From positions 7,902-71,901 of the forward strand of contig PAPT01000031.1 of assembly GCA_002708995.1 (NCBI GenBank): a stretch of DNA of 64,000 nucleotides, in the 5' to 3' direction. Positions 3,666 through 61,625 of this stretch are shown in pieces. The notes beneath the pieces are model-generated. The model ran no database searches, was not told the DNA's origin, and was given only the letters and a program-made list of their open reading frames with translations. The stretch comes from Geminicoccus sp. (GTDB taxonomy: Bacteria > Pseudomonadota > Alphaproteobacteria > UBA7985). How positions within the stretch are numbered: the first letter of the stretch is position 1; each line of letters begins with the position of its first letter. The translations under genes were made by a program, and so were the position numbers.

Positions 3666-3872
3666 CCTGCCCCCTTTGCCCCTTTCGTCTCTGGGGCCGT
3701 TGTCTGGCGGCCCGCCTGCTTCCTCACGTCGCCCCGGTCGCAGGGCGCAAACGCCACTGTAAGGCAGCACAGTTACACACAAGCGTGCTAACAATTCCTT
3801 TTCAAGGCCACCGTTCATCCCTAGTTAAAGGGTTCAAACGTCAATATTGAGACAGAGAGAGCCGGACACGCC

Positions 3873-4763: not shown

Positions 4764-4793
4764 GCCCGGCGCCGCACCAGAACAAACCAGACC

Positions 4794-5249
4794 ATGGCCC
4801 GCAAAATCATCGCCCAGAACCGCAAGGCCCGGCACGAATACTTTATCGACGAAGTACTCGAAGCCGGGATTGCCCTGAGCGGCACCGAGGTGAAATCGCT
4901 GCGGGCGGGGCGGGCGTCGATCGCCGAGAGCTATGCCACTGAAATCAATGGCGAAATGTACCTCACCGGCGCCAATATTCAGGAATACGAGAAGGGCAAC
5001 CGCTTCAACCATCCCCCGGTGCGCAACCGCAAGCTGCTGCTCCGGCGGCGCGAGATCAACAAGATCATCGGCAAGCTGAAGACCAAGGGCGTGACCCTGA
5101 TCCCGCTGGCGCTGTACTTCAACGAGCGCGGGCGGGCCAAGCTGGAGCTGGGTCTGGCGCGCGGCAAGAAGCAGTACGACAAGCGCGAGAGCATCAAGCA
5201 GCGCGACTGGGACCGCCGCAAGGCGCGGGTGCTACGCGGGGATGACTGA
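4794..5249 (+). CDS. smpB: SsrA-binding protein SmpB
   Basis: 151 aa. MARK...[13 protein letters not shown]...GTEVKSLR...LIPLALYF matches SmpB end to end. Confidence 0.9.
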
Positions 5250-5355
5250 CGGCCCCTAGGCAAGGGCCGGCAACTGCGGCTATCGTCCGAACCAATCGGC
5301 CACCGACACCCGTCGAAACCCACCGATGCCCACCAATACCGGGGAGCCGGCACCC

Positions 5356-6168
5356 ATGAGCAGCGTCATCCACAACATGAAGCCCAGCCGCTATACTCCG
5401 GCGACCGAGGACGAAGCCCGGCTGCAACTCGCCACCTGCTACCGTGCCTGCGCGCAGGAGGGCTGGACCGACCTCAGCTCGACCCACATTTCCTGCCGCG
5501 TGCCCGGCACCGATGACCAGTACCTGATCAACGAACTCGGCGTGCACTTCCACGAGATGCGGCCCAACCGGCTGGTTAAGGTCTACCTCGACGGCACCCC
5601 GGTCGGCGCAGGCGAGCAGGCGCCCACCAACCCCGCCGGGCTGACCATCCATGGTGCGATCCTGCAGGGGCGGCCCGAGGTTGGTTCGGTCCTGCACACC
5701 CACACGGTGGCCGGCATGGCCTTCTCAGCGCTCAAAGACGTGGAGATCAAGCCACTGACCCAGCACGCCGTGCGCTTCTATAACCGCTGCCCGGCGCACG
5801 AGTACGAGGGCATTGCGCTGGATGCCGATGAAGGCCCGCGGCTCAAGCGCGACCTCGGTGAGCACGAGATGCTGATCCTGCGCAATCACGGCCTGCTGAC
5901 TGTCGGCGCCAACCCCGGCCACGCCTTCAACGCCATGTACTACCTAGAAAAGTCGATCCAGGTGCAGCTGGTCGCCCAGCAGTCCGGTGCGCCGCTGAAC
6001 CTGATCGGGAACAACGTGGCGGAGTCCACAGCGCAGCTCTACGCGACTTACCCGAACTTCTATGAGCGCGACTGGGACGGGACGGCGCGGTCGGTGGCGC
6101 TGGATGACCCGGCCTTCGAGGCGGCCTATATTCCGTGGCCAGAGGACGACGGCGCGCCTGCTGCCTGA
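5356..6168 (+). CDS. class II aldolase/adducin family protein
   Basis: ORF 5326..6168. ATG at 5356 is preceded by ggggag. The motif block HTHTVAGMAFSA and the overall pattern fit the class II aldolase/adducin N-terminal domain (zinc-binding histidines). Confidence 0.7.
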   Translation: MSSVIHNMKPSRYTPATEDEARLQLATCYRACAQEGWTDLSSTHISCRVPGTDDQYLINELGVHFHEMRPNRLVKVYLDGTPVGAGEQAPTNPAGLTIHGAILQGRPEVGSVLHTHTVAGMAFSALKDVEIKPLTQHAVRFYNRCPAHEYEGIALDADEGPRLKRDLGEHEMLILRNHGLLTVGANPGHAFNAMYYLEKSIQVQLVAQQSGAPLNLIGNNVAESTAQLYATYPNFYERDWDGTARSVALDDPAFEAAYIPWPEDDGAPAA

Positions 6169-6202
6169 AGCAGCAATCAGAGCCGGCCAGCAACCAGAAG
6201 CC

Positions 6203-6301
6203 ATGCCCAACCCACACCCGCGCTGGCCCTACTGGGCCCGGTTTCTGCTGCTGGCGCTGATCGCCTTCGGGGTGACAGCCGCGCTCTACGCCCTGACTTG
6301 A
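6203..6301 (+). CDS. possible small membrane peptide (hypothetical)
   Basis: Internal ATG of ORF 6062..6301. The 32-aa product has a single hydrophobic helix, FLLLALIAFGVTAALYAL. It is followed by a hairpin at 6361-6388. Weak evidence. Confidence 0.2.
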   Translation: MPNPHPRWPYWARFLLLALIAFGVTAALYALT

Positions 6302-6360
6302 GGACGAAGGCCGGAACCCGGCATCTTCCCTTCGCCCCATGGCTGCGATACCTGCACAAC

Positions 6361-6388
6361 AAAAAAAGCCCCGCCTGACCGGCGGGGC
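6361..6388 (-). terminator. intrinsic terminator for the cadherin-like gene
   Basis: aaaaaaa-GCCCCGCC-tgacc-GGCGGGGC. On the minus strand the hairpin is followed by a U7 run. It lies directly 3' of the gene ending at 6418. Confidence 0.7.
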
Positions 6389-6417
6389 TCTTGCGTGTCG
6401 TACTCGTTAGGAGACGG

Positions 6418-7809
6418 CTAGAAGTCGATTTGAGTCGACGAGAGTGTTTGCACGTCTTCGATGGTGAACTCCATGTCGGCGCCTGCATTCCAGCCCCCGT
6501 TCTTGTTCACATCAACCAGCACCCGGATGTCCGTGCCAGTGTCGTAGAACGCGACGCTGTCGGTTGCTAGCGCGGCCTGTGCTGCTGCGGAGTCAGCGTG
6601 CAGCGTGGTGTCCAGACCGTTGGTCAGGTTGAAGGCGGTGAGATCGAGCGTATCGTCCGAGCTGAAGGCCTGAACTACGTGGACCGAGGTTACCTGAGCC
6701 ACCTCGAAATCAACGATGTCTCCGCCCGTGCCCAGATCGATCGTCAGAACTGCCGATTGATCAACGCCCAGCACGATTTCATCATTGCCCGTGCCAAGGT
6801 CGAATGTAACAGCGTTGGTAATGTCAACAGTCAAGTTCAGAAGGTCTGCGCCGGAGCCCATGTCACCCGTGAGGCTGGCGTCCATGCTGTGCCCAAGCGT
6901 GATTGAGTCGTTACCTGCCGCGGCGTCAAACGAGGCGGTGATGGCGCCACTTGAAGCAATATCGTCGTTGTTCGCCGACAGGTCGCTGTTCATGTCGCCA
7001 CTCGCAGTAGTATCCGCGTCAGCTTCGCTGTCTACGGTGACTGTGATCGGCGAAGAGCTGGCTTTGCCATGATCGTCGGTGGCGGTCACAATTAGCTGGT
7101 AGTCATTGTCACGGTCCGCATCACCGGGCGAGTCAAAGTTCGGCTCATCCTTGAAGGTGATGGCACCTGCCGTGCTGATCGAGAAGAACTCAGCATCGTC
7201 CCCGGACAGGGTGAAGGTGATGGTGTCTTTCTCAGCATCGGTCGCGGATACAGTCAGCACTGTTCCGGTATCATCTTCGTCGAAACTGGTGCTGTAGGCC
7301 GTTTCGGAAAGCTCTGGTGCGGTGTTGTTCGAGCGGGTGATGACGATGTAGGCGATGATGCCCGCTGCCACCAGACCGACGGGGATCAGAATACCACCGT
7401 AGCCCAGACCGCCGAAGAAGCCCGGCGAGCTGTAGGTCGGGTAGGCGCCGGAGGTCGGTGGGATGTACCCGTTCTGCGCGACTTCCACGCCCTCGATCAG
7501 GTCAGAGACCATGATCTGGTCCCCAACGAGGCCGTATTCACCGCGTGGAATGATCATTTCCTCACCGCTGGCCAGCATGACCCGCAGATCGCCGTCTTCG
7601 GTGAAGCCCAGCGGCGTGCCGTCGATGGTGGTGAAGGGATTGTCGGTCGACGCGCGCGCGGTCTGCGCAGCGGCCTCACTCGCGGTGAAGGCGAAGGCGG
7701 CGCCAAGGCTGATCGCCGAGAAGGCTTTGGCAGCGCGGGCCATTTGCCGCTTTTGAGCGCGCCGGGAAAAGAGGATTTCAGGGGTCAAATGGTGAAATGC
7801 CGTAGCCAT
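6418..7809 (-). CDS. cadherin-like domain protein with degenerate RTX-type GGxGxD repeats (paralog 1)
   Basis: ATG at 7809 has a strong SD (aggaga); alternative start at 7743. Sec-type signal ...AAFAFTASEAAAQ; hydrophobic helix GILIPVGLVAAGIIAYIVI; cadherin-like block FTLSGDDAEFFSISTAGAITF...DYQLIVTATDDHG...ITVTV. C-terminal nonapeptides of Ca-binding beta-roll type (AAGNDSITL, GSGADLLNL, GTGNDEIVL, GTGGDIVDF). Confidence 0.6.
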   Translation of the reverse strand: MATAFHHLTPEILFSRRAQKRQMARAAKAFSAISLGAAFAFTASEAAAQTARASTDNPFTTIDGTPLGFTEDGDLRVMLASGEEMIIPRGEYGLVGDQIMVSDLIEGVEVAQNGYIPPTSGAYPTYSSPGFFGGLGYGGILIPVGLVAAGIIAYIVITRSNNTAPELSETAYSTSFDEDDTGTVLTVSATDAEKDTITFTLSGDDAEFFSISTAGAITFKDEPNFDSPGDADRDNDYQLIVTATDDHGKASSSPITVTVDSEADADTTASGDMNSDLSANNDDIASSGAITASFDAAAGNDSITLGHSMDASLTGDMGSGADLLNLTVDITNAVTFDLGTGNDEIVLGVDQSAVLTIDLGTGGDIVDFEVAQVTSVHVVQAFSSDDTLDLTAFNLTNGLDTTLHADSAAAQAALATDSVAFYDTGTDIRVLVDVNKNGGWNAGADMEFTIEDVQTLSSTQIDF

Positions 7810-46322: not shown

Positions 46323-47303
46323 CTACCAGCGCAGCAGCGTCGCGCCCCAAGCCAGACCGCCGCCCAGTCCCGCCATCACCATCAGATCCCCGCGCTGCAA
46401 TTCGCCGCTCTGCTCCAGCTCGTGCAGGGCCAGCGGTACCGAGGCCGCAGACGTGTTGGCGTGGGAGGCAACGGTAGAGATGAAACGTTCCGGCGGCGCA
46501 CCGATGCGTGCGGCTACGGCGGCAAGGATGCGCTGGTTGGCCTGGTGCGGGACGTACCACTTCACGTCATCAGGCGTGAACCCGTGGGCGTCGAGCAACT
46601 GGAGCACCGCGCCGGACATCTTTTCAACGGCGTGGCGGAAAACTTCTTTGCCAGCCATGTAGAGGTGGCCGACGCTCTGCGTGCTGCTCGGCCCGCCGGT
46701 GGTATGCAGGATATCGATCAGGTTGCCGTCGGCGTTCATCTGCAGGTCGATCAGGCCGCGCGGGTTCGCGCCGGTCAGGGCGTCCAGGCTGTCATCCCGC
46801 TCCATGATCACTGCGCCCGCACCGTCACCGAACAGCACGCAGGTGGTACGGTCCTCCCAGTTCAGAATGCGGGTCATGGTCTCCGAGCCGATGACGATCG
46901 CACGTCGCATGCGTCCGGTCTGCAGCAAGCCATCGGCCGCGCCGACGGCGTAGATGAAGCCGGCGCAAACGGCCTGCAGGTCGAAGGCGAGGGTGCCTGC
47001 AGGAGCCCCCAGCTCGCGCTGCACCATGGTTGCAACAGCGGGGAAGGTTAGGTCTGGGGTGGTGGTCGCGACGATGATGCCGTCGATATCGGCCGCCGTG
47101 AGCCTTGCACTGTCCAGCGCCGAACGAGCCGCAGCGATGGCGAGGCTTGATGTTGTCTCATCCTCGGCAGCGATATAGCGCTGCGCAATGCCGGTGCGGG
47201 ACTTGATCCACTGGTCGCTGGTTTCCAGCGCAGCCGGGAGGTCATCGTTGGGAACCGCCCGGGCTGGTAAGGCGCTGCCGACGGCGCGAATGACAACAGA
47301 CAT
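46323..47303 (-). CDS. fabH: 3-oxoacyl-ACP synthase III
   Basis: ATG at 47303 is preceded by AAGGAG at -8. Cys in AVCAGF, His in HQANQRI, Asn in ANTSAAS. 326 aa, canonical FabH. Confidence 0.85.
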   Translation of the reverse strand: MSVVIRAVGSALPARAVPNDDLPAALETSDQWIKSRTGIAQRYIAAEDETTSSLAIAAARSALDSARLTAADIDGIIVATTTPDLTFPAVATMVQRELGAPAGTLAFDLQAVCAGFIYAVGAADGLLQTGRMRRAIVIGSETMTRILNWEDRTTCVLFGDGAGAVIMERDDSLDALTGANPRGLIDLQMNADGNLIDILHTTGGPSSTQSVGHLYMAGKEVFRHAVEKMSGAVLQLLDAHGFTPDDVKWYVPHQANQRILAAVAARIGAPPERFISTVASHANTSAASVPLALHELEQSGELQRGDLMVMAGLGGGLAWGATLLRW

Positions 47304-47511
47304 GGGCACAGCTCCTTCAGGCGTTCCCGTAACTTATACGAATTTGCGGACCTTAGCTCTGAAAATGCGATGGAACAGGGATAATCCACTCACAGGCCTG
47401 AACCCTTTGGCTGTGAGCACGTTTTTTTCGGGGCGGAGGGGATGAATCAGACACGGTTCGACGTACATCGTTCCTTAGTATTCACCTATGCACTGCCGTG
47501 CCGGAGCCTCC

Positions 47512-49575
47512 ATGCGATCGACCTTTCGTGCCGTTGCCGGTTTCACCATGTTGTTGGGCTTTACCTTGGCCATTGCGGCCGTGGGTGCTTTCCTGATTTC
47601 TTCCCGATTTGAGAACAACCAGGCTGCCGGTGGGCGCGGGGGTGGTTTTTTCGGGTCTCAGGAGCCGACTTACACGGTGGATTTGCAGGTTTTTGAGGCT
47701 CAGGACTTCACCCCGATGATCACCGGCTTTGGCTCCATCTCCGCCGGTCGGACGGCAGATTTGCGCCCGCTGGTCAGTGGCTTGCTCGAGTCAAGCGCGC
47801 CAGCGCTGGTCGAGGGAGCCTTTATCCGCGAAGGCCAAACCCTGTTCAGCGTCGATGCCTTCGAATTTGACCTCGCCGTCAAGGATGCCGAAATTGCGCT
47901 CATCGACGCCCGGGTCCGGCTTGAGACCGCGCGCGCTGATCTCGCCGTCGAAATTGCTGCGTTCTTGCTGGCCGAAGACCAACTGGTGCTGAGCGAAGAA
48001 GACCTCGAACGTCAGCGCCAATTGCTCGATCAGGAAGTGGTTTCAGCCGCTGCAGTCGACAACGCCCAGAACGCCACGCTTGCAGCGCGTGCGAGCGTCG
48101 ATGCACGCCGGGCCAGTATCGCCCGATCAGAGGCCGCAGTCCCCACCGCCGAGCTGGCTGTCGAGCGGGCCAGCCTGAACATCGAGCGCGCCCGGCGGAA
48201 CCTCGAGAACACCACCCTGACAGCCCCTTTCGACGGCCTTGCGCAGAACGTCTCCTTCGCGCTGGGTCGGCAGGTCGGCAGCAACGATATCCTCGCGCGG
48301 CTGGTAGACCTGTCGCAGCTCGAACTGCGTTTTCAGCTCTCCGATGAGCAGCTGGGCGGTCTGATCAGCGCAGGTGGCAACCGCGACGCCCTGCGCGGGC
48401 TGCCGCTGACCCTGTCGTGGGATGTGGGCAGCCAGATCCTGACCTATGAGGCCGAGATAGACCGCACCGCCGTCGCCATCACCGAGAACCAGGGTGGGAT
48501 AGATATCTTTGCCCGGCTCAAAGACATCAATCCGGGCAATGTCCCGCCGGTGGGTGCGTTCATGGCCTACAGCTTCCCGGAACCAACGGTGAAGGGCGCC
48601 TTTGTCGTGCCGGCCGAGGCCGTCAGCCCGGCGGGTGAGATGTTCGCCGTCGATGACAGTAACCGCATTACGGTGTTTCGGGTCGACGTCCTGCGCCGAG
48701 TGGGCGATGTCACCTTGGTCGCCGGTGACGCCGTTCGACCCGGCGATGCTTTCGTGGCCCGTCGGTTCATCCAGCTGGGCGAGGGCACCAAGGTCAATCC
48801 AAACCGCCCTGAAATCCCTGAGCAGTTTGCCGACGCCCCTGCGCCGACCGGCGGTATCCCGGACACCGGTCCGGTCGAGCTGGATGCAACCCAGCAGGAC
48901 TGCATGCGGAGCCTGATTGCCGGGGCCGATGGCCTGCCCGACCGGGCGCGCGAGCGGATCACCGCCGCGATCGATGGTGGCACGATCGAGAATCCCCAGC
49001 GGCTCAAAGGCATGCAGGAGCGCATGGGGCTGGACATCGATTCCTGTTTCCCCTCGCCAGAAGTGGCCGCGCTGGCTGAGGCTGATCCGGGCGGGTTCCC
49101 GACCGGCGATGGACCGGTTGATCTGACCCCAGAGCAGCAATCCTGCCTGATCGAGCTGGTCGAGAACTCCGACCTGCCCGCCACGCCCAAGGGCTTCATC
49201 ATTCCTGCGCTCGAACGCGGGTCCATTCAGGATCCGTCCCGGATGGCCGGTCTCAAGGAGCGCGCCGGGATCGATCTGGACAGCTGCTTTCCGGCCTCCC
49301 AACCCGCCGCCGATCCTGAGGTGGCCGCGGTGACTGAGACTGATCCGGGCGGGTTCCCGACCGGCGATGGACCCGTTGATCTGACCCCAGAGCAGCAATC
49401 CTGCCTGATCGAGCTGGTCGACAACTCCGACCTGCCCGCCACGCCCAAGGGCTTCATCATTCCCGCACTCGAACGCGGGTCCATTCAGGATCCGTCCCGG
49501 ATGGCCGGTCTCAAGGAGCGCGCCGGGATCGATCTGGATAGCTGCTTTCCCCCATCCCTGCCGGTTGCAGGCTGA
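47512..49575 (+). CDS. RND efflux periplasmic adaptor (membrane fusion protein) with a C-terminal triple-repeat extension
   Basis: ORF 47488..49575 with ATG at 47512. N-terminal anchor FTMLLGFTLAIAAVGAFLI, then HlyD-like coiled-coil and beta-barrel regions up to about residue 450. After that come three copies of a Cys-containing module of about 60-85 aa that is not part of known adaptors. Immediately followed by an RND permease gene. Confidence 0.75.
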   Translation: MRSTFRAVAGFTMLLGFTLAIAAVGAFLISSRFENNQAAGGRGGGFFGSQEPTYTVDLQVFEAQDFTPMITGFGSISAGRTADLRPLVSGLLESSAPALVEGAFIREGQTLFSVDAFEFDLAVKDAEIALIDARVRLETARADLAVEIAAFLLAEDQLVLSEEDLERQRQLLDQEVVSAAAVDNAQNATLAARASVDARRASIARSEAAVPTAELAVERASLNIERARRNLENTTLTAPFDGLAQNVSFALGRQVGSNDILARLVDLSQLELRFQLSDEQLGGLISAGGNRDALRGLPLTLSWDVGSQILTYEAEIDRTAVAITENQGGIDIFARLKDINPGNVPPVGAFMAYSFPEPTVKGAFVVPAEAVSPAGEMFAVDDSNRITVFRVDVLRRVGDVTLVAGDAVRPGDAFVARRFIQLGEGTKVNPNRPEIPEQFADAPAPTGGIPDTGPVELDATQQDCMRSLIAGADGLPDRARERITAAIDGGTIENPQRLKGMQERMGLDIDSCFPSPEVAALAEADPGGFPTGDGPVDLTPEQQSCLIELVENSDLPATPKGFIIPALERGSIQDPSRMAGLKERAGIDLDSCFPASQPAADPEVAAVTETDPGGFPTGDGPVDLTPEQQSCLIELVDNSDLPATPKGFIIPALERGSIQDPSRMAGLKERAGIDLDSCFPPSLPVAG
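48850..49560 (+). repeat. in-frame tandem direct repeats inside the adaptor gene (period about 258 bp, last two copies about 98% identical)
   Basis: 49083-49296 and 49341-49554 differ at only a few positions (for example gagaactcc vs gacaactcc, and gatctggacagc vs gatctggatagc). A more diverged copy lies at about 48850-49060. Each copy encodes GGFPTGDGPVDLTPEQQSCLIELV.NSDLPATPKGFIIPALERGSIQDPSRMAGLKERAGIDLDSCFP. Confidence 0.85.
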
Positions 49576-49590
49576 GGGAGACGCCGAACC

Positions 49591-52500
49591 ATGGCACTGA
49601 CCGCTTACCGCCCCGAACGCCCCGAAGTCATCCGCGACACCGACGTGGAGAAGGGCATTATCGCCGCCTTTGCCCGTCATGGCACGGCGGCCAACATCCT
49701 GATGATGCTGATGATCGCGGCGGGGATCTGGGCTTTCTTCAACCTGCGCACCCAATTCTTCCCGGACTTCGTGCAGGAGCGCATTACCGTCAACGTCAGC
49801 TGGCCCGATGCGCCAGCAGCCTCGGTCGACGAGGCGATTGTGCAGGTGCTCGAGCCCGAAGTGCGTTTTCTTGAAAACGTCGACTCAGTCTTTGCCTCGG
49901 CGAACGACAACGCGGCTGTGTTCTCGCTGCTGTTCAAGACCGGCACCGATATGGAGCAGGCGCTGGCCAACGTGACCTCGGCTGTCGACGCGGTCGAGAA
50001 CAGCTTTCCTGAAGACGCCGCCGATGCCCGTATCCGGGTGTCAGCCTTCCGCGACCCCGTTTCGTCGATCCTGATCGCCGGACCGGTGTCGCAGTACGGC
50101 CTGAAGACCATCGCCGAGCGCATGCGCGACGACCTGCTGAACCGTGGCCTGCTCGAAGTCAACGTGCAGGGCGCCCGCAATCCGGAGATCGAGGTCGAGG
50201 TCGATGAATCCGCCCTGCGACGGCTGGGCCTGACCCCGGCCGACGTTTCCGCCGCCATTGCCCGCCGGGCCAATGATCTGCCCGCAGGGACGCTGGGCGG
50301 GGAGCGGGCGGTGCGCACGGTGGGCACCGAAGCCAGCGCCGACAGCATCGCGGACTCGCCGATCCGCGCTGAGCCCGACGGCACCGTGATCCGCGTCGGC
50401 GACGTGGCGCAGGTCACTGAATCCGTCCCCGACACCGGCCGCTCCATCTACTTCCAGGGCGAGCCGGCCATCTCGCTGCAGATCCGGCGTGGGCCGGAGG
50501 GCGATGCTATCCGCCAGCAGGCCGTGATCCGCGAGTACCTCGAAGAGATCCGGCCGACCCTTCCCACCAACATCACCATTGAGAATTACGATGTCCGCGC
50601 CGACCTGATCCTCGGCCGGGTGCTGCTGCTGCGCGATAACGCGTTCTACGGCGTGCTGATCGTGCTCGCATTCCTGTTCATGTTCCTCAACATGCGCACG
50701 GCGTTCTGGATCGCCGTCGGGATTCCGGTGTCGATCGCTGCGACGCTGGGGGTCATGTGGGCGCTGGGCCTGTCGATCAACATGTTCACGCTGTTCGCGC
50801 TGATCCTGTCGCTGGGGATTATCGTCGATGATGCCATTGTGGTGGGGGAGTACGCCGACTTCCTGCACCAGCAGGGCTACAAGCCCGCCAAGGCGGCCAT
50901 CATCGGGGCCAAGCGCATGATTGGGCCGGTGGTCGCCGCCGCGACCACCACCATCGTCGCCTTCGGGGTGCTGTATTTCCTGCCCGGCCGGCTGGGGTCG
51001 ATCGCCAGCGATATCCCGGTGACGGTGGTTGCGGTGCTGATCGCCTCGCTAATCGAGTGTTTCCTCGTCCTGCCCGGGCATATGTACCACGCCCTCAAGC
51101 AGCGGGAGCGTGCCGAGCGACGCCTGCGCTCGGGCAATGGCCACCCGACGCCGGTCAACGCTGCGATTGCGGGCTTACGCACCCGCTTTGACGCCGGCTT
51201 CGAGTATGTGCGGCTGCGCCTGTTCCGGCCCATGGTCGCCTTCTTCGTCTGGGCGCGCTATCCGCTGCTGGTCGGGGGGCTGGTGATTTTCGTCTACGCC
51301 ATTGCCATGGTGATGACCGGCTCGCCGCGGTGGTCTTTCTTCATCCGACCCGAGAACAATGCGGTTAACGTCAACCTCACCATGGTCGAGGGCGCGACCC
51401 GCGCCGACACGCTCGAGCAGCTGATGATGGCCGAGACCTACGTGCCCGAGCTGATCCGCGACGCCCGCACCAGCCATCTTTCCAACATGCAGCGCGAGCT
51501 GGGCGACATGGCAGACGGGGCCTGGTACTCCTGGCCCAAGCGCCAGTACGACCAGCGCGTGCTCGCCGCCAAGATCGAGCGCCTTGAAGAGCGGATCGAG
51601 AGTGTGCCACCCGAGGACGACGTGGTGGTGATCTTCAGCCAGGTCGGCGCGCGCGGCGGCTTTGGTTTCGGCGGCACCGGCTCAGTCTCCGACCCCGACC
51701 TGCTGGGCAATGTCCGGGTCGAGCTGGTCGAGCAGGATACCCGCATCTACGGCACCCGCTCGCTGTTCTTCGGCTTGCAGTCGATCCCCAAGCACCCCAA
51801 GCTCGAAGGGCTTGCTTCGCGCCGCTCTTTCGGCGGGGGCGATGCCTCCTCGATTTCAGTGGCACTGGTCGGCGGTGAGACCGAGCAGCTCAAGGCCGCA
51901 GCGCTGCAGCTCTCGGCCTTCCTCAATGGCATCGAAGGGGTCTCCGAGGCTGAGGACGACACGCCCTATGGCACCACGCAGCTGGTCGCGCAGGTCTCTG
52001 ACCGCGGCGCGGCGCTGGGATTTGACGCAAGCAGTGTTGGCCAGCAGCTGCGCGCGTGGATCAGCGGTGAGACGGCCGTCAATCTGGTCCGCGACGACGG
52101 CGAGATATCGGTGACGGTCAAGGTCGATGAAGCCGTGCAGACCGCTAACTTCCTCGCCGGGCTCGACCTCTATACTCCTGCGGGCACGCCGGTGAAGCTC
52201 AGTCACGTGGTCGATTTCACCGAAATTGCCGGTTTCTCCCTGATCCAGTCCCGCGACGGCGCGCGCCGGATCACTGTGCAAGCCGAACTCAACGAAGACA
52301 CAGGCAACGTCGGTGATGTCGAAGCCCGCCTGCGCGAAATCGGTGCTATCGGCGCGCTGGAAGGTGACTTCGGCGTGCAGGTCGCCTTCGAAGGCGAAGC
52401 CGAGGAAGAGCGCGAATTCCTGATTGGCTTCCGCAACGTGCTGATCATCGCCATGGCGCTGATCTTCCTGACGCTGGCGTGGGTGTTCCAGTCATTCTTC

Positions 52501-53025
52501 CGGCCGTTGATCGTCATGGCGATCATCCCACTGGGCTTCGTCGGGATGATCTTTGGCCACCTGATCCACGGGCAGGTGCTGAGCTTCCTGTCGCTGATCG
52601 GATTTGTCGGCCTGACCGGGATTATCGTCAACGACAGCATCGTGCTGATAAGCACCATCGAGCGGCGGGCGCGGCACCAGCCGGTGCGAAACGCCATCCT
52701 CGACGGCGCTGCCGACCGGCTGCGCCCGGTGCTGCTGACCTCGCTGACCACCATTGGTGGACTGATGCCGCTGCTGTTCGAGACCTCGGTACAGGCGCAG
52801 TTCCTGATCCCGCCGTCGCTGACCATCGTCTACGGCCTTGGGTTGGGAACGATCGTGGTGCTGGTGCTGGCCCCGGCGCTGTTCGCCGTGCAGCACGACA
52901 TCACCTCATCGCTGCGTTCGGCCACGGTGGTCATCAACCGGATGCTGAGCACGCGCAGACCGCGCTTCGCCTCGACCGTGCAACCGGTTACGGCCGATCC
53001 TTCGCTGGCCGACGAAGGCGCCTGA
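49591..53025 (+). CDS. RND efflux transporter permease (AcrB/HAE1-like)
   Basis: 1144 aa. Twelve-TM RND topology with two large periplasmic loops. Conserved TM4 region GIIVDDAIVV. Follows the adaptor gene with a 15-bp spacer. Confidence 0.85.
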   Translation: MALTAYRPERPEVIRDTDVEKGIIAAFARHGTAANILMMLMIAAGIWAFFNLRTQFFPDFVQERITVNVSWPDAPAASVDEAIVQVLEPEVRFLENVDSVFASANDNAAVFSLLFKTGTDMEQALANVTSAVDAVENSFPEDAADARIRVSAFRDPVSSILIAGPVSQYGLKTIAERMRDDLLNRGLLEVNVQGARNPEIEVEVDESALRRLGLTPADVSAAIARRANDLPAGTLGGERAVRTVGTEASADSIADSPIRAEPDGTVIRVGDVAQVTESVPDTGRSIYFQGEPAISLQIRRGPEGDAIRQQAVIREYLEEIRPTLPTNITIENYDVRADLILGRVLLLRDNAFYGVLIVLAFLFMFLNMRTAFWIAVGIPVSIAATLGVMWALGLSINMFTLFALILSLGIIVDDAIVVGEYADFLHQQGYKPAKAAIIGAKRMIGPVVAAATTTIVAFGVLYFLPGRLGSIASDIPVTVVAVLIASLIECFLVLPGHMYHALKQRERAERRLRSGNGHPTPVNAAIAGLRTRFDAGFEYVRLRLFRPMVAFFVWARYPLLVGGLVIFVYAIAMVMTGSPRWSFFIRPENNAVNVNLTMVEGATRADTLEQLMMAETYVPELIRDARTSHLSNMQRELGDMADGAWYSWPKRQYDQRVLAAKIERLEERIESVPPEDDVVVIFSQVGARGGFGFGGTGSVSDPDLLGNVRVELVEQDTRIYGTRSLFFGLQSIPKHPKLEGLASRRSFGGGDASSISVALVGGETEQLKAAALQLSAFLNGIEGVSEAEDDTPYGTTQLVAQVSDRGAALGFDASSVGQQLRAWISGETAVNLVRDDGEISVTVKVDEAVQTANFLAGLDLYTPAGTPVKLSHVVDFTEIAGFSLIQSRDGARRITVQAELNEDTGNVGDVEARLREIGAIGALEGDFGVQVAFEGEAEEEREFLIGFRNVLIIAMALIFLTLAWVFQSFFRPLIVMAIIPLGFVGMIFGHLIHGQVLSFLSLIGFVGLTGIIVNDSIVLISTIERRARHQPVRNAILDGAADRLRPVLLTSLTTIGGLMPLLFETSVQAQFLIPPSLTIVYGLGLGTIVVLVLAPALFAVQHDITSSLRSATVVINRMLSTRRPRFASTVQPVTADPSLADEGA

Positions 53026-53026
53026 T

Positions 53027-54010
53027 ATGGTCGACCACCGCTTCAAGTGGGATGCCCACGTCTGCCTGCCGATCTCGGTGGCGACAGACGTGAGCGACCT
53101 GCTGGCGTACCTGCGCGCCGGGGTTGATTTCATCTCGCTGAACATCGGCATGTGCATGAATCCCCTGTCGCAGATCGGCCCGGTTATCGACCACTTCACC
53201 GCCGCCATCGCCGCCACACCGGGGCTGAAGCTGGTCGGCTCTGTCGACGATCTGGAACCGGGCGTCACCGGCGTCGCCTTCGATCTGGAAGGCGCCCGTC
53301 CGCTACAGGGCCGGGCCGAAGCCGTCGCCACCTTCCACGCGCAGGGCGTGCGCATGATGCATCTGGCCTACAACCGCAACAACGAGGTCGCCGGGGGTTG
53401 CCACGACGGACCCATGGGGCTGACCGAACTGGGCCACGACGTGGTCGCCGAAGCCAACCGCCTCGGCATTCTGCTCGACCTGTCACACACCGGTGAGGCG
53501 TCGTCCTTCGACATCATCGCTGCCTCGACCCGGCCGGTGGTTTATAGCCACGCCAACGCCGCCGCCCTGCACGGGCACGCCCGCAACATCTCTAACGCAC
53601 AGATGCGCGCGGTCGCCGCGACCGGCGGCGTGGTCTGCCCGACCGGGGTCGGGAAGTTCATGGGGCTGGACCGGGCGCCCACGGCGCAGGACATGCTACC
53701 CTACATCGATCACGCGCTGGCCACCGCCGGCGAGGAGCACGTCGGCCTTGGGTCGGACATGTGGTTCGGACAGGACGGGGTGGACGAGACCCCGCCACCC
53801 GATCCGGCGACCGGGCAGGACTTCGACCCGCATTACTGGTGGCCCGAAGCCTTCGACTATGACCACAGCGCGAGCGCCATCGGCGGGGGCTATCTTGCTC
53901 CCGAGGAATGGGACGTGCTGCCGGGGCTGCTGGACGATCATCTTGGCCCCCGGATCGCTGACAAGGTGCTGGGGCATAACATGCGGCGTGTGGCGGCCGA
54001 GGTCTGGTGA
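53027..54010 (+). CDS. membrane dipeptidase family protein (peptidase M19-like)
   Basis: 327 aa. TIM-barrel dipeptidase blocks (...GVRMMHLAYNRNNEV..., DLSHTGE, VYSHANA...). Begins 2 nt after the RND stop. Confidence 0.65.
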   Translation: MVDHRFKWDAHVCLPISVATDVSDLLAYLRAGVDFISLNIGMCMNPLSQIGPVIDHFTAAIAATPGLKLVGSVDDLEPGVTGVAFDLEGARPLQGRAEAVATFHAQGVRMMHLAYNRNNEVAGGCHDGPMGLTELGHDVVAEANRLGILLDLSHTGEASSFDIIAASTRPVVYSHANAAALHGHARNISNAQMRAVAATGGVVCPTGVGKFMGLDRAPTAQDMLPYIDHALATAGEEHVGLGSDMWFGQDGVDETPPPDPATGQDFDPHYWWPEAFDYDHSASAIGGGYLAPEEWDVLPGLLDDHLGPRIADKVLGHNMRRVAAEVW

Positions 54011-54088
54011 ACCGGGTTTTGGTCAGGTGGGCAAACATGCTAGGTCTGCGCGTCCCCGAAACAGCGCCCACCAGCCGGATATCCGCCC

Positions 54089-54970
54089 GTGTTTGACCCC
54101 CGCCGCCACGCCGTCCGCCCCGACCTCGCCGACAGCCGCCTTGCCGACCTGCTGCCGGAGGATCATGCGGTCGTTGACGGCGCGCTGGAGCAGGTCAGCG
54201 CCCCAGTCGTGCCGATTTTCGCTCAGCCCGATGCCCGCGCCGAGCGCGCCAGCGAAGCGCTTCTGGGCGAGCGGGTGATGGTGTTCGAGGACCGGGACGG
54301 CTTTTCGTGGTGCCAGCTGCAGGCCGACGGCACCGTAGGCTACATCCCCACCGCTGCGCTTTCCCCGGATATCGCCGCGCCGAGCCACCGGCTGGGGGCG
54401 CTGCGCAGCTTTGTCTATGCGACCTCTGACCTGCACGGCACCGTTTCCGCAGCGCTGTCCATGGGCAGCGAAGTCCGGGTCGAGGAACAAGACGGAGACT
54501 TCAGCCGTATCGGCCCGGATGAGTGGGTCTTCACCGGCCATCTGCTGGCGGCAGATGACGTCGCTGATGATCCGGTGACGGTGGCGGCAATGTTCCTGCA
54601 CACGCCCTACCTTCGCGGTGGACGCTCGTCGCTGGGGTTGGATTGCTCGGCGCTGGTGCAGCGCGCTTTTGCTGCCTGTGGCCGTGCCTTGCCACGGGAC
54701 AGCGATATGCAGGCGGGCGATGCGCTCGACTGGCTCGATGACAGCCTCGGTGCGGATTGGCAGGAAGCCAGCGAGGGGGCTGGCACGGCGCTCCAGCGCT
54801 GCGATCTGCTGTTCTGGGATGGCCATGTCGGGCTGATGGTGGATGAAAAGCACCTGATACACGCCAGCGCCGACGCCATGGCCGTGGTGACCGAGTCGAT
54901 GGCACAAGCGGTCGCGAGGATAGAAGCTGCTGGCGCAGGCTTGCCGACCTTGGTGCGCCGTCCCATTTAG
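54089..54970 (+). CDS. NlpC/P60 (C40) family peptidase with N-terminal SH3-like region
   Basis: GTG start. Catalytic Cys in GLDCSALVQ, His in DGHVGLMVDE...HAS. The N-terminal half resembles bacterial SH3 domains. Confidence 0.7.
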   Translation: MFDPRRHAVRPDLADSRLADLLPEDHAVVDGALEQVSAPVVPIFAQPDARAERASEALLGERVMVFEDRDGFSWCQLQADGTVGYIPTAALSPDIAAPSHRLGALRSFVYATSDLHGTVSAALSMGSEVRVEEQDGDFSRIGPDEWVFTGHLLAADDVADDPVTVAAMFLHTPYLRGGRSSLGLDCSALVQRAFAACGRALPRDSDMQAGDALDWLDDSLGADWQEASEGAGTALQRCDLLFWDGHVGLMVDEKHLIHASADAMAVVTESMAQAVARIEAAGAGLPTLVRRPI

Positions 54971-55313
54971 CCCGGGACGGTTGGCCTGTTCCCAGGCCTA
55001 TTCAGGCCAGACGACCGCAATCGCCGCCGACATATCCCAGCGGAAAATGACGTAGTGCCCGACGGCAAGCGGACGGCTGTGGTCAACCACGCCGTCCTTC
55101 TGCAGCTCGGCGCTGTCCGCGCGCGTCACCGAGGCGTTGGCGAGGTCGGCGTCTATCACCGCCCAGCCCCAGCGCGGCTAGCGCGGCGCCCGAGGCTGCG
55201 TGCCTCAGCAGCTTTCTGTGGTCGAGCATGGTCAATCTTTCTAAGAAGAGAATTCGTTACAAGTTATATAACCATAGGATGATTTGGGAAGGCTGAAGTT
55301 CGGTGGGGCCGTT

Positions 55314-58020: not shown

Positions 58021-59319
58021 CTAGCCGAGGATGCGGACTGGCGAGAACGCCCCTCCGCCAGCACCTTGTCCCCCGACCGCACGGGTCGGATCGAGGCCCC
58101 ACAGGTCCCGGGCAACGCCCGTATAGACGCTGCGGAAATCGGTGGTGTGTACCATATCGCGGTCGACCAGATCGCGCGCCTCCAGCGACGGCCGCTGGCC
58201 GCCCAGCCCGCCCTTAACCGCGCCGCCAGCGAGGATCACCGGCGCTGCCGTACCGTGGTCGGTGCCCGCCGAGCCGTTCTCGTAGAACCGGCGACCGAAC
58301 TCCGAGTAGGTCATCAGCGTCACCTGCTCCCACAGGCCAATGTCACGGGCGGCGCGCTCGAAGCCAGCCAGCGCTTCATCGAGCTCGGTGAGCAGGAAGG
58401 CGTGCGCCTCGGCCTGGCTGGCGTGGGTGTCGAAGCCGCCGTGGCTGACCTTGAACACCGGGGTGCTCACACCGGCGTCAAGCAGCTGCAGCGCCACGGT
58501 AAGCTGTAGCCCCAGCAGGCTGTCAGGCATGCCGAAGTCACGCTGCGCCGAGGCGTGGATCTTCCGCTCCAGCAGGTCAGCGGTACCCAGCGCGTTGCTG
58601 TGCACGCTCAGTACGTGGTCCAGCGCGGCATTCCCGCCCGAGGGCCGGACCGCATGGGCCACCGCGCTAGTGTCGTCCATGCCAGCCCCCATGGTACCGC
58701 CGATCTCGTCTATGTCCTCGTAGCCGCCCAGCACCCCGGCGGCGCGCAGGGCGTCGGTCTGCTCGAAGAAGCCTTCGATTTCCTCCAGCCCGGTAAAGCG
58801 TCCCGGCCCGCGCAGCGGCCCCATTTCACCGCCCAGACGAATGCCGTCGGTGTCAAGTTCCAGCCCGCCATCGGGGCTGCTCATCAGGCGCGAGATCCAG
58901 CCCTGGGTGGCCTTGCTGTCTGCCCCCACTCCGGCGTTCCAGATTTCGATCGAGCGGAAGTGGCTGCGGTTGGGGTCGGGATAGCCCACGCCTTCGATCA
59001 GGCGCAGGTCGCCCCGCTCCCACGTCCCTGCCAGCCCGCCGAGGCTGGGGTGCAGGCCGCCGTCGCTGTTCAGCCCCAGCACCTCCGAGCCGGAGAGCGC
59101 CAGCGTCGGGCGGGCGCGGTGGTAGTTGTCGTCGCGGAAGGGGATCAGCGTGTTGAGCCCGTCGTTGCCCCCTTCGAGTTCGATTAGGATCAGGCTCTGG
59201 TTGCCCCCGGTGGCGGCACCCGCCGCCCAGACAGGCGTGCTCAGCACGGGCAGGGAAGCAGCAGAGGTCCCCAGTAGACGCAGCCAGCTACGGCGGTTCA
59301 TGGAGAGTTCGGTGGTCAT
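58021..59319 (-). CDS. DUF1501 family protein with a twin-arginine (Tat) signal
   Basis: 432 aa. Tat motif NRRSWLRLLGTSAA. Sulfatase-like fold hallmarks GGNDGLNT and the C-terminal GTDHG. Classic partner of DUF1800. Confidence 0.75.
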   Translation of the reverse strand: MTTELSMNRRSWLRLLGTSAASLPVLSTPVWAAGAATGGNQSLILIELEGGNDGLNTLIPFRDDNYHRARPTLALSGSEVLGLNSDGGLHPSLGGLAGTWERGDLRLIEGVGYPDPNRSHFRSIEIWNAGVGADSKATQGWISRLMSSPDGGLELDTDGIRLGGEMGPLRGPGRFTGLEEIEGFFEQTDALRAAGVLGGYEDIDEIGGTMGAGMDDTSAVAHAVRPSGGNAALDHVLSVHSNALGTADLLERKIHASAQRDFGMPDSLLGLQLTVALQLLDAGVSTPVFKVSHGGFDTHASQAEAHAFLLTELDEALAGFERAARDIGLWEQVTLMTYSEFGRRFYENGSAGTDHGTAAPVILAGGAVKGGLGGQRPSLEARDLVDRDMVHTTDFRSVYTGVARDLWGLDPTRAVGGQGAGGGAFSPVRILG

Positions 59320-59354
59320 GGTCGTCGGCCTTTCATCCCGTCACAGCGGGGCTG

Positions 59355-61625
59355 TCATTTCAGGTTAAAGCGGGGGTCGAGGATCAGCGTGGTCAGCAGC
59401 TGTTCGAGGCTTTCGTCGTCCTCGATCGCAAAGGATGCCGTGGCCAAATCCGGGTTCGGCACGGGCAGCAGCAGGCCTTCGATGGCTTCTGCGGTCCGCA
59501 GATCAGCGGGCAGGGCGGCCAGCCAGTCCTGCGGCCCGGCGTGAGTTTCGCTCAGCCGCGCCTGATAGCGCGCGACAACCGCTTCATCGAGCGTGCCGTA
59601 GACGTCATCCACGCGCTCTTCGTCCGGGGTTGCGCCTGCGCTCGCCGGAATGGCCAGCGCCAGCAACTCCGGGGCGAGGCCGAGGCTGTTCGGGCGGCTG
59701 TAGCCACGCTCGAGGCTGGGGGCCTGCCGCAGGGCGCGGGCGAGGGTGCCGCGCCGGGCGAAGCGGTTGGTAACTTCTGTCGCAGCCCGCTGGACATCGC
59801 CGAAGGTTGGCAAGCTTTTGCCGGGCTCTTCGGCTGCGTCCTCGGCCAGATAGGCCCAGGTCTGGTCGTCGCGGACCGCCTTGATCAGCTCGGGCAGGGC
59901 ACTGACCAGCGCAGCGAGGAAATCGGCCTCGTCCCCGCTCAGCCGGCGCACGCCATCGGACATATCGTCGGGCGAGATGAAGAATTCGACGCCAGCTTCC
60001 GCGTCAGCCTCTTCTTCGAAGCGGTCTTCGTCGACATAGGGCAAAGTGCGGGCGAGCAGGGCCTGCAGCGGGCAACCCGCGCCGCAGTTCTCACTGCCGA
60101 CCCCGAGGTAGATTTCGCTCTCCCCGCGGCCGCTGCCAGCCTCCTGCCCGGCGCCGACGAAGAACCGGAAATCGCGGAAGGTCTGGCCCCGGAACCCGAC
60201 GTCGTAGAGCTGCAGCTCGACCCCGGTCTCCTGCCAGTCTTCGTCGCGGAACTGCCAGGCCCAGCCCAGGGCAACCTCGCCCACGCGGAAGCCGCCGGTT
60301 TCGGCCTGCTGTCCTGCTTGCCCGATTGCAGGGGATGCGGGGACGGAGCCGGCTTCAAAATCATCGTAAATCCACATCTCACCCAGATCCCGCAGCGCGG
60401 TCGAGCGCAGCGCGAGGCTTGAATCGTTGATCCAGTTTGGCCCTTCCTGCCAGCCGGCCGCGTTCGGCGGGAAGAACAGCGCCTGTCCGGCCTGCTCGCT
60501 CCAGTCGGCGATCTCGCCCAGATAGCTCGGCGCGGTGCCGAAGCTGCGGTTGAAACCGACGAACAGCTCGATTGGCGATTTGATCAGGGTGCCGTGATTG
60601 CCCGGCTCCCAGAACGCCGGGGTTTCAAGCAGCGCTTGGTACAGGGTCGGCAGGTCCCAGTCCGCCGCCCGCCAGCGCGCGACCATGGTGTCGATCTGCG
60701 CCGGGTCGGGGGTCTCGGAGATAAAGTAGCGCCACAACTGCTCGGCGATATAGGCGCCGAAGGCGGGCTGGGCGAGGATCAGGTCGGGCAGGTTGTCAGC
60801 GTTAAACCGCCCCGACTGGCCGAAGATCGTCTTCGTGCCATCGTCGTGCTGACCCTCCCAGAAGCGGAACTGACCGTGCTCGTCCATGCCGTAGCCAGTC
60901 AGCGCGCGGGCAACCTCGCGGATGTCGGCCTCGGTGTAGCCGCGCCCCTGTCCCAGCGTGAACAGCTCCAGCAGCTCGCGGGCGAGGTTTTCGTTCGGGG
61001 CGCCTTTGACGTTCTCGACGTTGCTCAGATAGAGCAGCATCGCCGAGTCACGCAGCTGCAGTGCCAGCATTTCCCGGAACGAGCCATTGAGGCTGTTGCG
61101 GATGGTCAGGAACTTGCTCGCCGTCAGCTGCGCGTTTTCGTGATTTTCGAACGAAGTCACGAAGTGGTCCATCCAGAACAGGGTCATCTGCTCCTTGAAC
61201 GGGCTGTCAGAGCCGATCATCTCCACGACCCACCATCCTTGCAGGGCCTGCAGGTTGAGGAACTGCTGACCCAGCGCTAGCTCGCCGAGGGTCTCATTCT
61301 TGGCGTAGAGGAATTCGACCGGGATCGGCCAGTCGTAGAGGTACTGGGGCAGGGGCTGGGTTTCCGGCGCCCGGGTGTCGTCGAGGATGCTGGCGAGCAG
61401 CGCGCTGCGCGGCTGTCCGACAAAGGCGCTGAGGTGGGCCGGCGCCGCGCCAAAGCTGGTGCGGGTCAGGGCGTGGCGCACGTCGGCGGCGCTCAGCGGC
61501 TGGCTCAGGTCGGCGCTGCCTGCGCTGGTCTGGGCGAAGGCGGGGGTCACAGCCGCCCCGATCGTGGTTCCCAGCGCGAGGGTCGCGGCCCCGGCCAGAA
61601 GCCGGGCAGGACTCAGGGTTTTCAT
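59355..61625 (-). CDS. DUF1800 family protein
   Basis: 756 aa. Signal MKTLSPARLLAGAATLALGTTIGAAVTPAFAQ. Conserved DUF1800 block MTLFWMDHFVTSF...NENLARELLELFTLGQGRGYTEADIREVARALTGY. Confidence 0.75.
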   Translation of the reverse strand: MKTLSPARLLAGAATLALGTTIGAAVTPAFAQTSAGSADLSQPLSAADVRHALTRTSFGAAPAHLSAFVGQPRSALLASILDDTRAPETQPLPQYLYDWPIPVEFLYAKNETLGELALGQQFLNLQALQGWWVVEMIGSDSPFKEQMTLFWMDHFVTSFENHENAQLTASKFLTIRNSLNGSFREMLALQLRDSAMLLYLSNVENVKGAPNENLARELLELFTLGQGRGYTEADIREVARALTGYGMDEHGQFRFWEGQHDDGTKTIFGQSGRFNADNLPDLILAQPAFGAYIAEQLWRYFISETPDPAQIDTMVARWRAADWDLPTLYQALLETPAFWEPGNHGTLIKSPIELFVGFNRSFGTAPSYLGEIADWSEQAGQALFFPPNAAGWQEGPNWINDSSLALRSTALRDLGEMWIYDDFEAGSVPASPAIGQAGQQAETGGFRVGEVALGWAWQFRDEDWQETGVELQLYDVGFRGQTFRDFRFFVGAGQEAGSGRGESEIYLGVGSENCGAGCPLQALLARTLPYVDEDRFEEEADAEAGVEFFISPDDMSDGVRRLSGDEADFLAALVSALPELIKAVRDDQTWAYLAEDAAEEPGKSLPTFGDVQRAATEVTNRFARRGTLARALRQAPSLERGYSRPNSLGLAPELLALAIPASAGATPDEERVDDVYGTLDEAVVARYQARLSETHAGPQDWLAALPADLRTAEAIEGLLLPVPNPDLATASFAIEDDESLEQLLTTLILDPRFNLK

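Follow-up and report, generated by a model that had tools for sequence, protein, structure and literature searches.

A tandem two-cysteine tail on a marine alphaproteobacterial RND adaptor as a probable amplified form of a widespread, unannotated C-terminal module

The 64,000-nucleotide stretch of Geminicoccus sp. contig PAPT01000031.1 analysed here (hereafter the window) encodes a periplasmic adaptor of the resistance-nodulation-division (RND) exporters, at positions 47512-49575, whose body is followed by a long C-terminal tail of repeated, cysteine-bearing units. Judged by sequence comparison, this tail is an amplified, two-Cys variant, specific to one lineage, of a C-terminal module that is widespread among alphaproteobacterial RND adaptors but unannotated. 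Its novelty holds in so far as no curated family, structure or literature description covers the module, but its uniqueness fails.

The tail consists of three units of ~68 aa, parted by disordered linkers rich in Pro, Ala and Glu. In an AlphaFold2 (AF2) model of the full-length adaptor the units form compact helical modules (aa 455-514, 536-594 and 622-680), with a predicted local distance difference test score (pLDDT) below 50 between them. The features of the tail are as follows.

48805..48846 (+): disordered linker 1, Pro/Ala/Glu-rich (pLDDT <50 over aa 434-446)
48847..49053 (+): unit 1, type A, aa 446-514, three helices, Cys464 and Cys512 (sequence and AF2 model)
49054..49089 (+): disordered linker 2 (pLDDT <50 over aa 516-526)
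49090..49293 (+): unit 2, type B, aa 527-594, three helices, Cys545 and Cys592 (sequence and AF2 model)
49294..49347 (+): disordered linker 3, with a junction ASQPA common to the orthologues P0004 and P0005 (AF2 model and alignment)
49348..49551 (+): unit 3, type B, aa 613-680, three helices, Cys631 and Cys678 (sequence)
49057..49572 (+): DNA tandem repeat of 258-nt period, in two copies (49057-49314 and 49315-49572; repeat searches)

Every unit carries its two Cys in the pattern C-x47/48-C-F-P, a spacing of 47-48 residues, and the mature adaptor has no Cys outside the three units. The first-pass annotation of this DNA had described a periplasmic, Cys-paired tail of three copies with two Cys each, and this description is borne out. 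Units 2 and 3 differ at one amino acid (E to D) and share ~43% protein identity with unit 1; the protein ends ...PPSLPVAG after the last unit. At the DNA level, Tandem Repeats Finder reports a period of 258 with 1.9 copies (96% matches, score 920), and a second repeat search finds 244 nt at 95% identity. The 258-bp period given in the first-pass annotation therefore stands, whereas its figure of ~98% identity does not: over the same 214 bp (49083-49296 against 49341-49554) the copies are identical at 206 positions, or 96.3%, and over the whole 258-nt period identity is 91.9%, with differences at 21/258 positions.

A single B unit, modelled with AF2 from an alignment of 35 units, reaches a pLDDT of 89 and a predicted template modelling score (pTM) of 0.76. 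Its helices span residues 14-25, 31-42 and 49-59, an ordered C-terminal turn (63-66) holds the second Cys, and a two-residue bridge links the N-terminal strand with the loop preceding helix 3. The unit is thus predicted to be a small three-helix bundle without a recognisable relative of known function. Searches of Pfam with the tail and single units (E up to 10) gave sub-threshold noise only; the one candidate considered there, DUF3072 (E 0.021, below cutoff), was rejected as the similarity is limited to a single helix. The tail had no match in NCBIfam (E up to 1) or among PDB sequences, fold searches with the unit matched no solved structure, and neither family models nor folds of PG_binding_1, LysM, SPOR, OmpA-like or LTXXQ/CpxP domains matched the unit. 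Literature searches found no description of such an adaptor appendage, the adaptor SilB being the only precedent. The tail is therefore a genuine extra domain, as had been supposed, and sequence-profile and structure-based searches with one repeat unit, which had been recommended at that stage, match it to no well-described domain family.

A word-indexed search with the tail returned three proteins only, and a search with the whole adaptor returned 13 orthologues at 63-97% identity. The whole-adaptor search also turned up two distant adaptors (P0017 and P0018, 31% identity), the final 50 residues of which can be aligned with the type A unit but lack the Cys. A family profile made from 33 units and the P0017 and P0018 tails was scored against 1.84 billion cluster representatives (E <= 0.001) and found 153 clusters (at 50% identity), nearly all with matches ending at most 5 residues from the C-terminus of adaptors of ~480-640 aa. 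The short matches of this search are C-terminal adaptor fragments or probable chimeras, and none of them is a convincing stand-alone secreted form analogous to CusF. Separate profiles were built to avoid circularity, A7 from Cys units only and A6 from Cys-less terminal modules only, and hhalign aligned the two over 56 columns with 96.8% probability (E 2.9e-10); at the level of profiles, this confirms the Cys units and the Cys-less modules as homologous. The first-pass annotation had known of no RND adaptor with such an appendage; these clusters and this alignment show that the appendage is not unique.

A typical Cys-less member reads ...L-x-x-E-R-R-x-x-L-I-A-F-V-E-x-N-x-x-M-P-x-x-A-K-x-R-x-L-x-Q-L-x-x-x-x-V-P-x-x-x-x-x-R-L-E-S-R-M-G-G-COOH. 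The module is usually present once, with two copies in ~20 clusters and three in one (P0042). The adaptor bodies of these relatives are 29-33% identical to the window body over their full length and have the same transmembrane (TM)-anchored N-terminus, and in single-module relatives ~10-20 residues lie between the last body strand (...GAGI+V+P...) of the membrane-proximal (MP) domain and the module. One full-length single-module adaptor, P0073, has 1138 relative clusters at E <= 1e-20, a count of whole-adaptor similarity and not of tails one by one. These relatives come from Paracoccaceae and other Rhodobacterales (Marivita, Marinovum, Loktanella, Aestuariicoccus) and are all annotated as efflux adaptor subunits only; Cys-less adaptors bear just the label 'efflux RND transporter periplasmic adaptor subunit', and the module has no name.

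The Cys-less form, found mainly in Rhodobacterales/Paracoccaceae (e.g. Loktanella sp. DJP18, WP_422435502.1), thus resembles that of the window in its ~55-aa homologous stretch, its position after the MP domain and its TM-anchored adaptor. It differs in having no Cys, in usually ending ...RMGG-COOH, in usually being single and in being basic to neutral, where the window units are acidic. Compared with the typical ending, the window units have an extra LDLDSCFP and two Cys, and the Cys are absent together from all Cys-less relatives. Bridging relatives (P0028, P0039, P0059 and P0143) end ...RMGIDVPEL or ...RLGIDLAN, against ...RAGIDLDSCFP in the window form. Taken together, the module is an undescribed domain family, which with few exceptions occurs at the very C-terminal end of TM-anchored alphaproteobacterial RND adaptors belonging to one clade, and it has been duplicated independently in several lineages. 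Its non-adaptor contexts are confined to two unrelated proteins, P0037 and P0063, and a few probable chimeras. Helical modules of a similar kind (e.g. ITLTSEQQQVLQELIQQSDLPAMEKMEILQQVADGTIERTTF) occur several times in P0037 (929 aa) and in P0063 (791 aa), both of which have a Cys-rich C-terminus; hmmsearch finds two full-length copies in each, the first search had matched five and three stretches, and their only Pfam match is a sub-threshold one to OSCP.

The two-Cys form, by contrast with this wide family, is confined to ~8 marine species known from metagenome-assembled genomes (MAGs), with two or three units each. A scan of one genome from each of 185,579 species with the patterns PKGFIIPA and [SA]GGRGGGFF found 10 loci in 8 MAG species, all of them uncultured Alphaproteobacteria of marine origin; their labels are Alphaproteobacteria bacterium, Geminicoccus sp. 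MED756 and Rhodospirillaceae bacterium, to which the cluster members contribute Kiloniella sp. and Rhodospirillaceae TMED140. All 39 units have both Cys, and the units are arranged in four ways.

A-B-B: window, P0004, P0005, P0009, P0011, P0012
A-B: P0008 lineage
B-B-B: P0006, P0007, P0010
B-B: P0013, P0014, P0015

Unit number therefore differs among orthologues, as the first-pass annotation had proposed and suggested looking up, with two or three units in two-Cys adaptors and usually one, sometimes two or three, in Cys-less adaptors. Among close relatives, P0001 has three units, P0015 has what correspond to its units 1 and 2, and P0014 its units 1 and 3, such that single units have apparently been lost or gained between them. 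The 90%-identity cluster of the window protein holds 687-aa and 601-aa forms on several independent contigs, a difference of 86 aa or 258 nt, and P0353 (689 aa) and P0014 (609 aa) lie 80 aa, about one unit, apart. The lineages with more diverged units keep one length in 12-26 independent sequences: 23 of the 26 listed members of P0006 have 689 aa (one partial member has 625 aa), P0010 has 687 aa bar one 105-aa fragment, P0009 has 680 aa bar fragments, and P0008 has 608-610 aa. Length variation is thus restricted to lineages with nearly identical copies, which fits unequal recombination and short-read collapse equally, and the evidence for present-day copy-number polymorphism in populations is suggestive and ambiguous. 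Of the two routes of variation proposed earlier, recombination is likely, whereas a unit of 258 nt that stays in frame makes slipped-strand events implausible.

The quality of the repeat assembly matters here because the window tail is identical to that of MBB25400.1, a protein from a short-read TARA MAG labelled Geminicoccus sp. (contig match P0314). The three-unit form is, however, not an assembly artefact. It recurs in six or more independent assemblies, each with polymorphisms of its own (P0004, P0309, P0317, P0319, P0322 and P0005), and also on a 700-kb contig (L018) for which the name ('pilon') and the frameshift errors point to long reads. The collapse that had been raised as a concern in the first-pass annotation is therefore not what lies behind the repeat. 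In several short-read MAGs contigs are broken within the repeat (L011, which ends at adaptor residue 490, with L019; L015; L016 with L020), which is the behaviour expected of a real repeat. As a practical matter of annotation, the adaptor gene in L011/L019, L016/L020 and L015 is split over two contigs or cut off.

Selection on the units was assessed with Nei-Gojobori counts over 60 codons of the B units. Their ratio of nonsynonymous to synonymous divergence (dN/dS) is ~0.03-0.1, in the same range as the adaptor body, and between orthologues the identity of the B units is 75-87%, against 67-81% for the bodies. Both Cys and most unit positions are conserved across lineages in which synonymous sites are saturated. 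The synonymous divergence (dS) values that bear on the history of units 2 and 3 are given below.

Unit 2 against unit 3, window: dS 0.12 (5/45 synonymous sites)
Unit 2 against unit 3, P0004: dS 0.07 (3/45)
Unit 2 against unit 3, P0005: dS 0.40 (14/45)
Window or P0004 unit against either P0005 unit: dS 0.42-0.57 (16-17/45)
Body, window against P0005: dS 0.59

Between the window or P0004 and P0005, the synonymous counts contain no signal of orthology linking unit 2 with unit 2 or unit 3 with unit 3. The three share the junction CFPAS[QE]PA between units 2 and 3 as well as linker lengths, and the simplest history would be one duplication before their split and after divergence from the two-unit P0008 lineage. 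If there was a single duplication, the paralogues of the window and those of P0004 resemble each other significantly too closely (Fisher p = 0.003-0.006 and 0.0003-0.0007), and two derived residues are common to both units within a genome (window and P0004, LPATPK and ERGS; P0005, by comparison, LPAAPK and ERGT). This is good evidence that units 2 and 3 have been homogenised in the window lineage, probably by gene conversion. The earlier reading of the last two copies as either recently duplicated or evolving in concert is thus upheld by the synonymous counts, which carry the signature of homogenisation or recent duplication.

The body to which this tail is attached is that of an RND periplasmic adaptor, in agreement with the first-pass annotation. 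The protein passes the cutoffs of TIGR01730 (112.2 bits, cutoff 94.9) and HlyD_3 (34 bits, cutoff 22.2), phmmer matches it to MexA and MacA, and Foldseek with the full-length model (pLDDT 80) returns MexA/AcrA/MacA at E 1e-23 to 1e-20, with ~390-400 residues aligned (MexA/AcrA). The model has lipoyl, barrel and MP domains, an alpha-hairpin (helices aa 117-173 and 179-232) and an N-terminal TM helix, so that sequence model, four domains, membrane anchor and adjoining permease all identify it as an adaptor. That the body is followed by a tail was correctly seen at the outset, though its end, placed near residue 450, lies at ~431 in the AF2 model.

47512..49575 (+): RND periplasmic adaptor gene, 687 aa plus stop, start set by orthologues
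47515..47625 (+): N-terminal membrane-anchor helix, aa 2-38 (AF2 model and sequence)
47665..48804 (+): canonical adaptor body, aa ~52-431, with MP, beta-barrel, lipoyl and alpha-hairpin domains (AF2, Foldseek, phmmer)
47860-48207 (+): long alpha-hairpin, aa 117-232 (AF2 model)

The anchor helix has neither Cys nor lipobox, and the adaptor is therefore TM-anchored and not a lipoprotein. The longest mechanical call, an open reading frame (ORF) at 47488-49575 (+), has eight extra codons, MHCRAGAS (47488-47511), before position 47512; because 13/13 orthologues begin MRSTFRAV or MRTTFRAL, the true start is the ATG at 47512. The MHCRAGAS stretch would bring in a spurious seventh Cys. A long ORF on the opposite strand (48127-49755) was rejected as a GC-rich shadow of the real adaptor gene.

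The adaptor is followed, after 15 nt, by its cognate pump.

49591..53025 (+): cognate RND permease, 1144 aa (ACR_tran, 2e-129)
51424-51588 (+): helical insertion in PC1 of the pump (44+8 aa; pump residues 612-666), after AcrB residue 591

The pump is ~22% identical to AcrB and 38.7% identical to the pump of L010, a Rhodobacterales locus with a Cys-less single-module adaptor. It keeps an AcrB-type Asp-Asp pair in TM4 (VDDAIVV) together with R971, and scores 376 bits against RND_permease_2 and 177 bits against TIGR00914; it thus scores as multidrug-type above CusA/CzcA-type and is not of the type that partners heavy-metal efflux (HME) adaptors. At the K940 position (TM10) the sequence is VNDS. 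The long pumps (1130-1157 aa) that partner module-bearing adaptors in the loci examined form a clade of their own. The PC1 insertion is specific to the Cys clade, being common to the window, L001 and L004 pumps; it is absent from the L010 pump, and Rhodobacterales-type partner pumps (L010 locus, 3445-6846) instead have a C-terminal extension of ~70 aa with two extra hydrophobic helices. The systems are otherwise alike in being two-gene loci with a long RND pump, without an adjoining outer-membrane factor (OMF) gene, and in undergoing tandem duplication of the module.

The adaptor-pump pairing is syntenic in L001-L008. The two-Cys locus has the order PEPCK, FabH, adaptor, pump (1144-1157 aa), an M19 dipeptidase in some, and NlpC/P60. 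The Rhodobacterales loci (L010, L022, L023 and L024) have UDG, a CinA-like gene, a 485-aa adaptor, a 1130-1135-aa pump, a convergent gene with a DsbD_N domain (~270 aa) and DUF179, and no OMF or regulator gene stands alongside the adaptor-pump pair there. Neither the large ORFs of the window nor the neighbours of the adaptor-pump pair in the loci examined include an OEP-family or OMF gene, although one elsewhere in the genome is possible; this agrees with the first-pass annotation, in which the outer-membrane channel was noted as missing nearby. As to the other neighbours, an M19 membrane-dipeptidase homologue without an obvious signal peptide (53027-54010) begins 2 nt past the pump stop, which suggests translational coupling. 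The lineages of the window, L004 and L007 have this gene; L001-L003 lack it, and there NlpC/P60 directly follows the pump. A DUF1501/DUF1800 pair (58021-61625, minus strand) keeps its synteny with the adaptor locus across MAG contigs L001-L005. A promoter and terminator scan of 47250-55100 gave nothing above shuffled expectation.

As to how this tail arose and what it may do, the module of the two-Cys lineage gained the LDLDSCFP extension and the two Cys, probably together, and is present in two to three copies of types A and B. We suggest that the two Cys form an intramodule disulfide stapling the extension back onto helix 1 and that, in a tandem array, this disulfide would in addition determine where the following linker leaves the module. 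Copies would be gained and lost by unequal homologous recombination, with units 2 and 3 being homogenised by gene conversion. As for function, in the solved AcrAB-TolC and MexAB-OprM assemblies the MP domain sits on the porter domain of the pump. Because the ancestral module lies only ~10-20 residues past the MP domain, it would be placed at the interface of pump and MP domain near the inner membrane. The module is folded, constrained and essentially adaptor-specific, and it follows the MP domain; this specificity and position therefore favour a partner inside the complex. We accordingly picture a tethered protein-protein docking module on the membrane-proximal side of the efflux assembly, whose target may be the periplasmic porter domain of the cognate pump or neighbouring adaptor protomers, and to which extra copies would add avidity or reach. 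The account of the tail's anatomy and evolution is in our view very probable. The docking function is possible, and we offer it tentatively; anatomy, evolution and docking combined in one explanation would, as a compromise, be about evenly balanced between right and wrong.

Several observations weigh against this explanation. The PC1 insertion is not convincing as a co-evolving dock, being ~55% identical between the window and L001 (as read off an alignment excerpt), below the identity of the units, and the alignments contain no periplasmic feature common to window-type and Rhodobacterales pumps that would be a candidate docking site. The 601-aa and 687-aa variants could be products of short-read assembly collapse. 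Gene conversion depends on the assumption of a single ancestral duplication, which rests on one common junction, and the pattern would be no different if the window/P0004 lineage had re-duplicated the unit very recently.

Other functions have also been considered. The modules could be substrate-capture or chaperone domains that hand a periplasmic compound to the pump, as the CusF-like domain of SilB does, and here the SilB precedent for a functional extra C-terminal domain (PMC4446572), the strong constraint on the module and flexible tethers suited to fly-casting are all in keeping. However, the predicted fold is a three-helix bundle and not the CusF beta-barrel, a bundle of 60 aa leaves little room for a ligand pocket, the unit has no metal site of His, Met or Trp and its ancestral form has no Cys, no convincing free-standing CusF-like form was found among the short profile matches, and the pump has the TM4 Asp-Asp pair of AcrB and scores higher with multidrug-type than with CusA/CzcA-type models; we consider this function improbable. 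The units contain no His and one Met, and metal binding by the Cys pair as a primary role was rejected given the Cys-less ancestral form, the want of a His/Met cluster and the AcrB-like TM4, which makes the metal-binding suggestion of the first-pass annotation an unlikely one. Slightly less probable again is that the tail is an envelope tether binding peptidoglycan, an outer-membrane protein or an unlinked channel, with more units extending its reach into the periplasm. No OMF gene adjoins the adaptor-pump pair in any locus examined, three linkers of 12-27 residues and three modules could span much of the periplasm, and unit number rose in the two-Cys clade, all of which would suit a tether. 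Set against this, the ancestral linkers of ~10-20 residues cannot reach the wall or the outer membrane, Pfam and fold searches give no likeness to known peptidoglycan-binding domains, and an OMF would ordinarily be reached through the long alpha-hairpin (aa 117-232), which the adaptor has in any case.

The remaining alternatives concern unit number itself. A contingency locus, in which the number of units switches often by slippage or recombination and so varies a phenotype within the population, would account for the clusters of at least 90% identity that hold both 687/601-aa and 689/609-aa forms, about one unit apart. Yet a 258-nt in-frame unit, a multiple of 3 with 21 differences between copies, offers no substrate for slippage, length varies only where the copies are nearly identical and short-read assemblers collapse or break, and the more diverged lineages keep one length throughout, so we regard this as very improbable. 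Neutral expansion without function, or artefact, can draw on the match of the window to the short-read TARA contig (P0314) and on the several MAG contigs that break inside the repeat. It is largely refuted by the recurrence of three units in independent assemblies with distinct polymorphisms and on the apparent long-read contig, by the low dN/dS and by conservation of the Cys and most positions despite saturated synonymous sites. A bolder version of events would make the tail a disulfide-stapled, multivalent arm that recruits or tethers an unfamiliar periplasmic or envelope partner (the wall, an outer-membrane component or a substrate carrier), its copies kept alike by gene conversion, within an accessory family that defines a clade of housekeeping RND systems. 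We doubt this version, although, if it were true, such an arm would be an adaptor mode not seen in the AcrA, MexA, CusB or SilB paradigms.

Comparison with known systems places the tail more closely. RND adaptors are usually described as four-domain proteins and, to our knowledge, the CusF-like domain of SilB is the only recognised extra C-terminal domain on them. MexA, AcrA and MacA have the same four-domain architecture as the window body, but these proteins, the first two lipoproteins and MacA TM-anchored, are 360-400 aa long and lack a folded domain beyond the MP domain, and their hairpin helices are shorter than those of the window adaptor (~55 residues each). The RND adaptor SilB of Cupriavidus metallidurans CH34 bears a CusF-like metallochaperone domain for Ag/Cu at its C-terminus (Bersch et al. 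2011, reviewed in PMC4446572) and resembles the window adaptor in having a further folded domain past the MP domain. The SilB domain, however, is a beta-barrel with a Met/His/Trp metal site, serves an HME pump, occurs in single copy and exists in a free form (CusF), whereas the window module is a predicted three-helix bundle without a metal motif, arranged in tandem, next to a pump with an AcrB-like TM4 and with no convincing free form. Generic three-helix-bundle interaction domains, such as the paramyxovirus phosphoprotein XD and the domains of staphylococcal protein A, are also among the nearest known systems.

The tail adaptor is not a new kind of system, and the function put forward for it is a putative one. 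What the analysis adds is that a large clade of alphaproteobacterial adaptors, among them those of abundant marine Rhodobacterales, regularly carries a different, uncatalogued domain. The loci are conserved parts of the core genome, which suggests a physiological export function over an acquired drug pump. With the two-Cys tandem version, nature offers a clean experiment on how domains are amplified and evolve in concert. Naming the module as a family would improve the annotation of these adaptors, and its partner would inform how the pump is assembled or fed.

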